Notes under the pieces: model-generated
What the model was told of the DNA's origin: nothing
Databases searched by the model: none
What the model saw: the letters and a program-made list of their open reading frames with translations, nothing else
Part shown: piece after piece, positions 17,435-62,857 of the stretch
How the letters are laid out: every line of letters begins with the position of its first letter
Position numbering within the stretch: the first letter of the stretch is position 1
Position numbers and translations under genes: made by a program
Source of the DNA: Eledone cirrhosa
Lineage: Eukaryota
Reading direction: 5' to 3'
DNA: 64,000 nucleotides
NCBI GenBank assembly: GCA_964016885.1
Contig: OZ024753.1
Span: 7,688,001-7,752,000 of the forward strand

Positions 17435-17495
17435 TAGGAACGAGTAGGACCCCGACGGCTGAGCTCAAGCCGTTTCGACAGCTAATTCTGGACTC
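17435..17495 (-). mobile_element. fold-back element X, solo short arm (hammerhead 3' half)
   Basis: TAGGAACGAGTAGGACCCCGACGGCTGAGCTCAAGCCGTTTCGACAGCTAATTCTGGAC between (TA)n runs. Confidence 0.8.
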
Positions 17496-17514
17496 ATATA
17501 TATATATATATATA

Positions 17515-18100
17515 ATAAAATATAGAGAAAAATACTGCAGGTAGCACATGGATAACATGTAATAAAATGAGTCCCTCATCAGTGATTTGCCGACGATCAT
17601 CGATATTTCATTGCATTAAAAATCATATACCTCACGTCGGTGCAATAATAACCAAAATAAGTTATTAGGACAATTGAAACGCGTAAAGCGAGTGAGACAG
17701 GAGAACAACACAGAGTATAGCTAATCGTAGGGGAAAGAAACAAGCTTCAAAATTATTCTGTTTAGCATAAGCTAGGTGAATATATGAGCTTTTAGAAAAC
17801 AGACCTGACACGAACTCTGGCCATGTGAGAAGAGAGAAAAATAGCCTTCGTGGTGTACAGGATGAAATGAAGAGAAGAGAAACAGTGAGTGAGTGAAAGT
17901 GTGAGGAAGAGTTAACTGACATGACAGAGGGGGAGAAACAGAGAGACTGGGGGAGCAGTAAGAGAGAGAGAGAAAGAAAAAAACACAGAATCGCAGTGGT
18001 AAATATATGTAATAAAATATAGAGAAAAATACTGCAGGTAGCACATGGATAACATGTAATAAAATGAGTCCCTCATCAGTGATTTGCCGACGATCATCGA
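17515..18100. mobile_element. dispersed element bounded by an about 87-bp direct repeat
   Basis: 17515-17602 is repeated at 18011-18100; body similar to 16122-16425. Confidence 0.65.
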
Positions 18101-18102
18101 TT

Positions 18103-18242
18103 TATTCGTTGTAACGAAAAATTCTGTATCCTTTATAACGAGATCGAGCTAATACATCGAGCGTGTGATCGGAGATTGAAAGAAATTTCATTATACTGAA
18201 AAATTTATTATAATGGTATTCGTTATAACGGAATGTTACCTG
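18103..18242 (-). mobile_element. Tc1/mariner (Tigger-like) terminal region
   Basis: ends GGTATTCGTTATAACGGAATGTTACCTG then TA; inverted match to 4657-4840. Confidence 0.6.
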
Positions 18243-18608
18243 TATATCACCCTAGTTATCTGAGACGCTGCTGTAGTGATGATTAGAGTCACTAAATAAA
18301 TGAGAAAAATTATAAATTATAACTGGCTTGCTTTGTGAAATTGAATTGCTTAGGGAACAATTCCGAGTCGCTGTTCATATGACAAACTATATTTAACGTG
18401 GATATATTTAATGTAGTGAGTATTAAGATGTTAACCAGAGTTAACTGGTCATTCCTCCTCAAATAAATCATTCACTGGTGTAAAGTTAGCATTTAACTGT
18501 CCAGGGAAAATGTTGTAGCATACCATAAAGATGATGAATTGGTTAAATGAATTTATTAACTCGGTTAATTCATATCTTCTATGCTCTATTGCGTAGCTTC
18601 GTTAGTAT

Positions 18609-18835
18609 TTAACCCTTTAGCATTTACATTACTCTATATTTACTATAGTATTTTCACAGCAAACGCTTTATTTCACATAATTATCTCACATAATGTCGAA
18701 TCTATGAGATTTTGATATTATTTATTTTGAGAACAATACCTTGACATCAGTATGAGTGGCCATTTACTGCCGCCTTGAACAGAAAGAAGTGAGAGAATTC
18801 TGTCCGGATATGGTCGGTTTAAATGCTAAAGTTAA
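18609..18835. mobile_element. piggyBac-type MITE
   Basis: TTAA-CCCTTTAGCATTTA ... TAAATGCTAAAG-TTAA; TTAA target duplication; inverted relative of 31988-32182. Confidence 0.8.
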
Positions 18836-18916
18836 AATATACACATAGTTAACAGATCATACTTACACAAACAGAAGCAAACTACCTGAATAAGAGAAGC
18901 TATGATGAAATATATG

Positions 18917-19293
18917 CAGTTGTCCCCCGGTTAACGCGGGGGTTACGTTCCTAGAGTGCGCGCGAGGAGTGGGAAAACCGCGAATATCGGACGTGGTCCA
19001 AAAAATACCTATAAACGTCAAAATATAATGTAAAATATAATTTTTAAAAAAAAGAGAGAGCGTCATATGCGAAGGGGAATCTAATAGGCCGGTGGGGTGT
19101 CAAATACGGTATATTGTTATTAATAATTTAGCGTTAAAATATAAATATACATTACCACGAAAAAAGCCATTAAAAAAAGCGCGGAAGATATTAACGATTT
19201 TGCGAATATGCGGTGGTTTCCACGAACAGTTATTAGTTAGATTCTAAGAAAAAATCCGGAATATCCGGAACCGTGAATGCCGGGGGTACACTG
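18917..19293. mobile_element. Tigger/pogo-like MITE
   Basis: imperfect TIRs CAGTTGTCCCCCGG..CGCGG and CCGTGAATGCCGGGGGTACACTG. Confidence 0.6.
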
Positions 19294-59813: not shown

Positions 59814-60446
59814 GTCCACTACGATGATAAAAAGGTAGGGAGCCAATGTATCTCCCTGGAGCACTCCAGCCAGTATCTCAAAGAAGTCTGTCATCCCATC
59901 AGCTGTAATGACTTGGGCTTTGGTGTTGGTGTAGAGCAGTGATATCAGGTCCACTATCTTCTTGGGGATTCCATAAGCCTCTAAGATCTTCATCAGGCAG
60001 TGATGGTCCACAGAATCAAAGGCCTTCCTAAAGTCAACGAAAACCATGACCGCAGGAAGGCACTTTGCTCTAGCTCCCTCTAATATCCTCCTCAGCATCA
60101 GGATGTGACTGGTGTTTGATCTTCCCTCTCCGAAGCAGTTCTGGTTGTCCCTGAGCTTCTTCTCCATCTCAGGCTGGATCCTGTTAAGTATCATCCTGTT
60201 GAGGGTCTTTGCCACAAGTGACGTCAGTGAGATCCCCCTGTAGTTGTTGGTGTTAGAGAGATCTCCCTTCTTTGGCACTGGGACGATGTTACTGATCCTC
60301 CACTGATTCAGGGCAGCTCCTTTCTCCAGTGCCCGGTAACAGAACCCCAGGATGATATCATGAAAATCACACCTCTTCATCACCTCTGATGCCACTCCAT
60401 CTTCTCCATGAGCCTTGCCCTCCTTGATCCTCTTCTTGGCTCTCTG
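59814..60446 (-). mobile_element. LINE reverse transcriptase fragment (RTE-like), stop-free over about 210 codons
   Basis: VPVPKKGDLSNTNNYRGISLTS..FVDFRKAFDSVDH..GVLQGDTLAPYLFIIVVD; truncated before the YADD motif. Confidence 0.93.
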
Positions 60447-61155
60447 TATAAATATATATATGTTTATATATATAAGTATGTAATGCAATATATGTAATGT
60501 AATGTAATACTGAAGATATGTGTCAAACATACAGTTCAAAAGTAAGTCATTATTGGATGAAAGATAAAATAAATAACTAAATAACGGCAAGCACACATTG
60601 ATTCGAGTAGATTCCAGCCTTGTAAGGAAATTGAATCTCAATCAAGCTCGTAAAATATCTCCTGATGAAAGAAAATATATTACCAAGTATTTTTGAGAAG
60701 CCCTCACATAGTTGAAATGTTGTCTTTTCTTGGATGGAACTCTTTTGAGAAGAAGAGTAGTTTCCGTAGTCTATTGATTGTCCACTTGTGAATTCTCTGC
60801 CTGTATGAAAACCAACTTGTGAACAGGTTTTTACAGATACATGTGGCAAGACTAACATAAGGAAAATAAAAGCAAATGTATATATTTTTGTAATTTGTAT
60901 GTTGTATGGCAACTGCTATATCAATAATTGTTTCTATCTATCTATCTATTTATCTATTTATCTATCTATCTATATATCTATCTATCTATTGCTATATCTT
61001 TCTATCTATTTATTTATCTATCTATCTATCTATCTGAGTCAGGCGAGCATGCATCTACGTCCTTCTCTGGATCAAAAGCATAGCACACACCTTGTCTTTG
61101 CTTGTATCCTTAAAGCTTACCATTATTCCATTGGGATACATCTATTACACAATTT

Positions 61156-61213
61156 ACACCTGATGAGGTCACCGGGTTCATATGCAACTTGGCCAATGAA
61201 ATGTGTATAGTGT
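61156..61213 (+). ncRNA. type I hammerhead ribozyme motif (family of 16675)
   Basis: ACAC-CTGATGA-GGTCAccGGGTT..AACTTGGCCaat-GAAA-TGTGTA-TA-GTGT; distal CTATTAC/GTAATAG pairing. Confidence 0.7.
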
Positions 61214-61350
61214 TTACAGTAATAGAAAATTAAGGAAATTCAACATATTTGTCCTCCTGTTATTTCACTTTATAAAATATATATTTATATATATATATAT
61301 ATATATAAATTATATATATATATATATATATAAATTATATATATATATAT

Positions 61351-61545
61351 AAATTAGCGAGAATCGTATTTCAGCTCAGGAATTAACGAAAATCAACGTC
61401 CGATATGTGTGGCAAGCGCTCGATGAATCATATGAATCAGAGCTACAACATACGTTAAGGGCCAAACACACTGAGATGATGGTTAAACATATCATCCGCA
61501 CAGCCAAAACAAAACGACCAAGTAATTCGGGTCAAACAATAAAAA
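61351..61545 (+). mobile_element. family Y element
   Basis: AAATTAGCGAGAATCGTATTTC..CGGGTCAAACAAT. Confidence 0.65.
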
Positions 61546-61865
61546 TATATGTGTTGATAATTTCCCGGACCCTGGACTGATGGTAAAATCCAGTATTGGT
61601 TTCTGCGACTCCAAAATCAGGTACTGTCCGCCTACATAAAGAATGTTGGGCTTCTGGTGAGATGATGAACAAGCAAGTCGTGTTATCAACGGGTTTTGCT
61701 CCAAGATGCTATAGATAGTGTGGCTATTACTGACCCCTCGTGGGATTCAGCAAGGGAATATATATATATATATATATATATATATATATATATATATATA
61801 TATATATATATATATATATATATATATATTATATATAGATAGTCCTATATTCACAATGTTTAATG

Positions 61866-62290
61866 CCTTAGTCTTAGACTCTTCCGTGCCGTTCGGCGCA
61901 TCGAGCAGTAAGTACTCGCCAACGGTCACGATCAGCGGCAACCTTTTCGACTGTACCAGATGATGTTGGGTGCCATCAGGTCCTTCCGGAACGTCCGTTG
62001 CCAGGTGATCCTTGGGCAACCCCCACCTACGTTTACCGCCAGGCGGAGTCCAGTTCATCGCTGTTTTCGAATGCCGTTCATTTGGCAGATGCAGAATATG
62101 GCAGCCAGCCAGACGGCACCGACGCTCCATCGCCCCTCTCTGTAGCGTCCACGACTTGGCTCTCCGCAGGATCTCCTTGTTTCGCACTCGGTCACACGAG
62201 GACACACGAAGGATCTTTCACAGGCACCGCTGGTGGAAAGCGTTCAGCTGTCTCTCTATTTTTGCCGTACTCTTCCAGGTCTCGCTCGCA
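61866..62290 (-). mobile_element. RTE LINE 3' fragment (second family), frameshifted
   Basis: LNAFHQRCL..DRVRNKEILRRA..HILHLPNERHSKTAMNWTPPGGKRR; 3' end GCACGGAAGAGTCTAAGACTAAG. Confidence 0.85.
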
Positions 62291-62669
62291 TAAAGCACTG
62301 TTTTAATGTACATTGTAATATTTCTCTTATTTTCAAGTCATGCCCATTATCAATGGCATCCATCTACCAATCTCTCAATTTATCAATATCATGTATATAT
62401 ATATATATATTTATATATATATATTTATATATATACACCAGGATTTTTTCATTCTGATAAATGAAAGCAATTTTGGTTGCTTTCAAGAAACCACTGGTAA
62501 ATGAAATAATTATCTCATGTTGTTTATTACATAACTAATAAGCTCCGTAACCTACATAGAGCACTCTATTTTCCTGGACCTTTCCGACGGAATCACTTCA
62601 TTCATACATATATATATATATATATATATATATATATACACACCCACACATGTGTGTGTATATATATAT

Positions 62670-62857
62670 AACGAAGGAGTTGTCGTAAGGAACCAGATGG
62701 ACCATAACGTACCAGAGTACTCAATACTTAGGGTAGCAGAGTGGGTAATAGGAGAAAGTACGACCCCGATGGCAGAGCTCAAGCCGTTTCTACAGATATT
62801 TCTGGACTAGCCGTCGAAACGGCTTGAGCTCTGCCGTCGGGGTCATACATTTTCCTA
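62670..62857 (-). mobile_element. fold-back element X (long and short arm)
   Basis: ..GACCCCGATGGCAGAGCTCAAGCCGTTTC / GAAACGGCTTGAGCTCTGCCGTCGGGGTC..TTCCTA. Confidence 0.8.

Follow-up and report, generated by a model that had tools for sequence, protein, structure and literature searches.

What kind of mobile element leaves short, lopsided palindromes in a genome, and why do nearly all of them break off at the same point? The question is raised by a 64,000-nt stretch of Eledone cirrhosa DNA (GCA_964016885.1, contig OZ024753.1, positions 7,688,001 to 7,752,000 of the forward strand; the window hereafter), in which a first-pass annotation had named ten copies of an asymmetric fold-back element, each read as half a hammerhead ribozyme folded back at its own stem II. 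With one arm as query all ten sites are recovered as 18 arms, every one with an E value of 3e-7 or better. Seven are head-to-head pairs of a long and a short arm, as described; of the others, one is a short+short pair and two are single short arms (Table 1). The sites are almost certainly truncated stubs of a Penelope-like element (PLE), a retroelement, inserted in (TA)n. In the window (TA)n follows 16 of the 18 arm 3' ends, (TG)n follows one and other DNA the last, and in a wider set TA repeats lie within 10 nt of 178 of 191 arm 3' ends, in agreement with the annotated ends and target. Of that annotation, the origin was right and the mechanism wrong.

Positions are counted from the predicted cleavage site as the zero point, -1 being the C of GUC and +1 the following base. 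A long arm has its 3' end at +99 and is tailed, whereas a short arm ends at +20 and is tail-less; the tail length of 79 nt given earlier is borne out. The mapping set comprises 213 arms from the window, 35 unselected 10-kb blocks and 60 loci, the last representing 92 of the first 100 listed places of an exact 22-mer of the arm. Five of the 213 are pieces of arms with internal deletions and were excluded from the stop-rate counts, leaving 208. Genome-wide counts are exact-pattern searches of the 3.0-Gb assembly.

The parent element and its ribozyme

Among the 30 best genomic matches to the arm, five extend upstream into a common sequence made up of a 1.2-kb 3' untranslated region (UTR) and an open reading frame (ORF). 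Longer copies define a 3,544-bp unit, which occurs in tandem arrays and with inverted partners and has intact ORFs of 717-719 aa with a YRDD motif. The Penelope-like parent encoding a reverse transcriptase (RT), expected upstream of the arm, is thereby found, together with GIY-YIG-like motifs, but its ribozyme core is TTGANAA and not the anticipated CTGANGA. The +20 and +99 ends are both internal to the unit, and beyond +99 the sequence enters the 5' UTR. Neighbouring array units are up to 100% identical; in one array of about 3.5 units (G000:C2:320547000-320562000, loci L235 and L236) neighbours are 99.6-100% identical and one ORF is intact. The exact 22-mer of the arm has 55,346 genomic copies (control 0), and there are about 13 stubs for every complete ribozyme end.

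The structure model of the ORF (pLDDT 87) matches RT folds, with TERT 3du5 at rank 2 (E 9e-8, TM 0.34), and according to this model the element is a single-ORF element with a telomerase-like RT fold; the ORF had no RT match in sequence searches of Pfam and PDB. The C-terminus, with a conserved VIY..YIG motif and downstream R, E and N, is a putative nuclease, an assignment resting on these motifs and on a weak Pfam GIY-YIG match in only two of 23 aligned proteins (best E 0.0024), neither being this element's ORF.

These motifs point to the Hydra clade of PLEs with a C-terminal endonuclease (EN+), of which Hydra-1_Obim is an example (Craig et al., 2021; PMC8557442). The element shares with the clade DKT (found in 19 of the 23 aligned proteins, with DKS in four), the CxCX5C linker, the lack of CCHH, CxxC and CxH flanking E and N, (TA)n targets and a hammerhead near the 3' end, and the Hydra-1_Obim protein in the supplement of that paper lines up with the ORF by eye. 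However, the unit measures 3.54 kb with its 1.2-kb 3' UTR against "generally <3 kb", the N-terminal motif is RWR for RWK (among the aligned proteins, RWR in 3 and RWK in 16), and the ribozyme combines a U3-A8 core with a loop II about 30 nt long, compared with CUGANGA and loops of at most 10 nt in the Hydra rows of the supplement. Since length and core depart from the Hydra norm and placement rests on motifs, the element is filed as Hydra-like, not as a named Hydra member; because ribozyme and length differ, it is, as far as sequence comparison goes, a family other than Hydra-1_Obim.

The arm had been read as the 3' half of a type I hammerhead, and this origin stands, since complete U3-A8 motifs are found in parents. 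The identity given to the missing half does not. A search for CTGANGA parents returned 14 genomic matches, all accidental: nine are fold junctions and five unrelated flanks, none being complete or preceded by the 5' strand of stem I. The parent core TTGANAA represents a U3-A8 swap, with G, T, A or C at position 7, and exact full motifs number 4,124 genome-wide (control 0); CTGANGA was therefore the wrong parent. That the 5' half is missing from the window is correct, as the furthest-upstream arm stops at -66 and this half of the core, at about -84 to -78, is not reached. A stem II 5' strand predicted from the diverged copy at 22031 recovered 189 parents of an older subfamily (control 0), with U3 in 29 of 30 at an unconstrained position and A8 in 27 of 30 where the pattern was constrained to a purine. 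A type I hammerhead with a U3-A8 core is thus predicted to be complete in the parent unit.

In a three-stem alignment of 34 copies, 93.4% of 680 cells are paired. Three stem pairs change on both sides, one of them imposed by the search patterns, and the covariation signal is essentially one split between the two subfamilies. Folding energy lends weak support: the hammerhead is the minimum free energy fold in three of seven copies and nearly so in a fourth, and z falls below -2 in only two of the seven. Among the 150 of 402 Rfam matches listed for the window, no hammerhead family appears. Screens that use CUGANGA only miss a U3-A8 ribozyme. A different small hammerhead, also with a U3-A8 core and ending in (TA)n, lies at L083:9442-9500.

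RNA cleaved by the ribozyme was considered as the template and rejected: no arm among 208 ends at +1, and cleaved RNA is therefore not a visible template. Separately, arms in L126, L130, L140 and L083 lack the stretch between two identical 7-mers at -30 and -7, a loss that suggests a template jump or a deletion across stem III.

Copy-back or two primings

In the mechanism proposed earlier, a single cDNA primed from the tail would stall in stem II, fold back, prime itself and copy as far as the TTCCTA end; self-priming has also been proposed for PLE inversions (PMC3846280). Copy-back of this kind is possible only if the short arm is nested in the long one, and therefore fails wherever the tail-less arm reaches further upstream. 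Among 76 long+short pairs this is the case in 42, by 5 nt or more in 28 of them, while the tailed arm reaches further in 25 and the two are level in 9. Each arm of those 42 pairs has sequence that the other lacks, as at 53928-54163 in the window, where the tail-less arm carries parent sequence absent from the tailed one. The long arm of 12 pairs goes no further upstream than +14, which leaves it almost no sequence in common with its partner. Inversions on the kilobase scale behave alike: three of five are non-nested, with short arms of 2.3-2.6 kb in L047, L048 and L049 against long arms of 0.4-1.5 kb.

The short end had been taken for the stop of copy-back. It appears instead to be an independent priming site, because single arms also have it and its frequency equals that of the long form: genome-wide, each of the two is counted 19,889 times, an exact tie that is taken as chance around 1:1. 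Close pairs are also strongly linked in their ends, 76 of 83 being long+short against the half expected under free choice on each strand (p 5e-16).

Two observations had favoured copy-back, and both are real. The short arm is nested in the long arm or level with it in 34 of the 76 pairs, and private variants are common to the arms of one pair, as had been noted, the 9-nt loop of stem I being identical in 33 of 49 pairs compared with 10.9% between pairs. Common loop variants within an insertion, however, indicate that a single RNA, or a single donor, is the likely source of both arms. Two reverse transcripts, started separately at points 79 nt apart, very probably explain the pairs better than copy-back, which is refuted for non-nested pairs, could apply to a minority, and as a general account has only a few chances in a hundred of being right. 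To judge from their sequence, the pairs thus argue against the self-priming of PMC3846280.

The pair centres differ among copies, as had been described, with 50 distinct centres in 53 pairs. The 76 junctions comprise 36 overlaps, 10 blunt joins and 30 inserts, the overlaps being inflated by palindromic sequence. Templated inserts of the polymerase-theta type were rejected, given that only three of the 12 inserts at least 7 nt long had a local match of that length or more.

A palindrome that is short, numerous and flanked by TA also resembles a miniature inverted-repeat transposable element (MITE), in which the palindrome would itself be the unit moved by a DNA transposase. Yet the ends are asymmetric, the interior, with its many centres, is not clonal, and the stubs form a continuous length series up to the full RT-encoding unit. 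A parent that encodes an RT, together with centres that are not clonal, refutes the MITE reading and leaves it a probability next to nil, and the retro route to a MITE-like palindrome proposed in the first-pass annotation is upheld; stubs of this kind could be mis-filed as MITEs. A non-LTR retrozyme, which consists of non-coding tandem units each with a complete hammerhead (bioRxiv 10.64898/2026.07.22.740005), was likewise rejected: the stubs are head-to-head and hold half a ribozyme, and the tandem units encode an ORF.

The 5' wall and the template

The fixed truncation zone near stem II that had been annotated is sharp, with its wall at about -45 to -41. Of 152 arms reaching -34, 128 end by -48, that is, 34-48 nt upstream of the cleavage site. 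The stop rate per nt is 0.103 at -34 to -48, 0.015 at -26 to -33 and 0.001-0.004 elsewhere, and at this wall it is alike for long (0.106) and short (0.101) arms. In the unselected 10-kb blocks 38 of 40 arms end there, and genome-wide 20,348 arms reach -41 and 3,693 reach -50, the longer pattern also losing mutated copies. In the contigs of three runs of uncertain kind, both 3' ends show loose ends that lead into TA repeats, and near -41 the summed depth changes tenfold, a step that does not give a copy number.

The modal end at -41 is the A of TTAGT/TCAGT, which we take to be an initiator-like motif and which is kept in both subfamilies, although the rest of loop II differs. A non-parental G precedes the end in 16 of 27 arms ending at -41 against 30 of 121 ending elsewhere (p 0.001); among (TA)n-flanked arms, counted by hand, the figures are 18 of 100 against 3 of 100 (p 0.0008). 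This G resembles the extra G copied from caps (PMC4038843) and counts for an RNA 5' end; an internal promoter is described for Penelope (PMC2377424).

The ribozyme stem had been held to dictate the truncation point, a claim that three results speak against. A second pass over the same sequence in long copies stops there in 0 of 20 cases. In insertions picked for one passing arm, every partner that reaches -34 also passes (18 of 18, read by eye); one selected set of 20 passing loci includes 12 without a partner terminus and one whose partner ends at +12. In sibling family B, 12 of 21 truncated arms end at -122 to -126, which is 70 nt upstream of the core and outside the ribozyme. Family B itself has a canonical CTGATGA hammerhead, (TA)n-flanked ends, two 3' ends and head-to-head minis, and is found in the window at 51473-51640 and 52140-52200 and at fetched loci such as L051, L069, L107 and L135. 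Because of the second passes, the concordant partners, the A of the motif with its G, and the wall of family B, the wall is most likely a property of the template rather than a roadblock.

Run-off of the RT at an RNA 5' end is the probable cause of this wall. In the mechanism that we consider slightly favoured as a whole, most insertions would be run-off copies of the 5' end of the element's own capped transcript, made by a dimeric RT-endonuclease that primes once per strand. The template RNA would start at an internal promoter inside loop II. The element protein would nick both (TA)n strands, and on one RNA one target strand would prime at +99 and the other at +20. Synthesis of the two cDNAs would then end by run-off at the capped 5' end, at lengths of about 140 and 60 nt, and the two cDNA ends would be trimmed and joined into a new centre for each insertion, which is why centres would differ. 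Long and tandem copies would come from templates that lack that 5' end, such as read-through or circular RNA; the near-identical array units fit the circular template proposed in PMC4209133, without proving it. Should this whole mechanism hold, the palindromes would record a start site inside the ribozyme, which would disable the 5' copy, and the full-length element would spread by way of an end-less template.

The main rival keeps the two primings but attributes the wall to a roadblock, whether the fold of loop II, a contact between loop II and stem I, or a bound protein. The wall does lie just 5' of the 3' strand of stem II, a place at which several copies are predicted to form a small hairpin. 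Both RTs would be stopped unless the whole complex were processive, the roadblock then being relieved jointly for both arms, and such a common processive state would also account for the 18 concordant partners and for the lack of stops in second passes. Against it, the sequence and predicted fold of loop II differ between the old and young subfamilies and both reach -41, stops are few where the RT traverses stems I and III, and the extra G and the outside-ribozyme wall of family B are left unexplained. A roadblock of this kind seems unlikely, at roughly one chance in five.

A second rival, which differs from run-off of the parent transcript only in the source of the RNA, holds that long arms are themselves transcribed from the retained start site and mobilised in trans as an RNA of 140 nt, in the manner of a short interspersed element (SINE), each insertion forming a new palindrome. 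The large excess of stubs over complete ribozyme ends would suit it, and both start sites are present in the long arm. However, the bases upstream of the initiator A are lost in most arms, and long parents exist for each stub subfamily seen. Sequence alone cannot separate the two sources; self-transcription is judged the less credible of these rivals and rather improbable.

Several observations weigh against run-off of a capped transcript. The wall ends are spread, with 12 at -45, 27 at -41, 16 at -40, 14 at -37 and 20 at -35, and run-off therefore needs trimming or several starts. The initiator match has only 5-6 letters, and inspection by eye revealed no distinct downstream promoter element. 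Where arms are paired, the G before the end can derive from the partner. One pair is discordant (L138, -56/-40), and the 20 second passes come from the youngest copies, which are not all independent, five lying in two tandem arrays. In family B, four of the 12 wall ends belong to two near-identical perfect palindromes, and family C, with 14 truncated arms, has no clean wall. Finally, 0 of 20 full-length copies start at -41 of the upstream repeat; the mechanism must therefore add that the mRNA made from the promoter seldom has its 3' copy primed, a rarity explicable by cleavage at the complete downstream ribozyme or by earlier termination.

Family C (window 62435-62610; L078, L158, L204, L243) carries a hammerhead and has long and short 3' ends, inverted pairs and scattered 5' ends. 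A splice acceptor at the wall was rejected as well, since AG is usually kept in the arms and there is no constant upstream exon.

Known systems and the window sites

The canonical PLE insertion consists of a pseudo-long terminal repeat (pLTR), an adjacent inverted 5'-truncated copy and a tail at one end (PMC8557442, PMC3846280). The present insertions resemble it in their head-to-head inverted arms, one-arm tail and partial tandems. However, their tail measures 79 nt instead of 30-40, and a single sharp wall leaves most of them, in tens of thousands of copies, about 200 bp long. In vitro, the Poseidon element PAc nicks and extends both strands with uncleaved RNA as template, and two internal RT start sites bound its tail (Frangieh et al., 2024; PMC11167929). 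Extension of both strands from two internal sites is a feature in common. By contrast, PAc displays no strand difference in the use of start sites, compared with one site each in the great majority of pairs here, and it primed at non-homologous sites, whereas both sites here carry a TA(T) that matches the target; the excerpted account of PAc does not describe run-off products. Cercyon PLEs of Schistosoma have the U3-A8 hammerhead variant (Cervera and de la Pena, 2014; PMC4209133) and share the core swap, a long stem II, a palindromic loop III and opposite-strand motif pairs close together, but their stem III is a minimal helix and not 5-6 pairs, and most copies here retain the 3' half only. 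In its excerpts, an octopus study (PMC13282606) only counts Penelope and MITE families, and bioRxiv 10.64898/2026.07.22.740005 treats tandem retrozymes.

Published work thus already includes each single element of this picture: the inverted-plus-tail architecture, the pair of start sites, the clade and the variant core. Run-off stubs and linked one-site-per-strand priming were not found in the literature searched, whose coverage left out most subscription papers. The origin of inverted and tandem PLE ends has been named as an open question (PMC8557442), and the tens of thousands of natural products described here discriminate between models of PLE insertion through their non-nested arms, one start site each and linked arm fates. 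If run-off priming is true, it would replace self-priming as the source of inverted PLE ends, the stubs would map promoter and template state from DNA alone, and the mechanism may extend to sibling families in the same genome. Intact ORFs exist and are usable for an in vitro test.

Table 1. Arms of the element at the ten window sites, with two annotated parts of one long arm (window positions; 5' ends counted from the predicted cleavage site)
Feature	Position	Strand	Detail
Single short arm, -41 to +20	17434..17494	-	extra G between arm and (TA)n
Head-to-head pair, older subfamily	22031..22216	long arm -, short arm +	5' ends: long -35, short -35
Single short arm, -40 to +20	28593..28652	+	
Pair	40536..40741	long arm -, short arm +	5' ends: long -45, short -47
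Pair	47214..47419	short arm -, long arm +	5' ends: short -41, long -43
Short+short pair, rare symmetric-end type	47909..48020		5' ends: -41 and -30
Pair	53723..53913	short arm -, long arm +	5' ends: short -39, long -35
Pair	53928..54163	long arm -, short arm +	5' ends: long -53, short -66
Pair	55140..55349	short arm -, long arm +	5' ends: short -41, long -40; junction insert 10 nt
Pair	62669..62858	long arm -, short arm +	5' ends: long -41, short -31
Retained ribozyme half, example	47278..47320	+	loop II 3' side, stem II 3' strand, GAAA, stem III with palindromic loop, GUC
79-nt tail, example	47341..47419	+	between the two inferred RT start sites

Other repeats share the window with these sites. 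Family E (22280-22520; also L074 and L167), which adjoins the copy at 22031, has a hammerhead-like motif (CTGATGA) and a long partner in inverted orientation. At 38823-39069 two arms of another repeat stand tail to tail around a (TA)n tract, and a related arm occurs in L190. Three minus-strand segments, at 20350-21003, 41080-41571 and 59811-60641, are presumably ORF fragments of other non-LTR retrotransposons, to judge from their motifs. A SINE-like repeat of about 190 nt is present in many copies (401-591, 5000-5184, 10182-10476, 25197-25389, 26103-26398 and 40347-40523).

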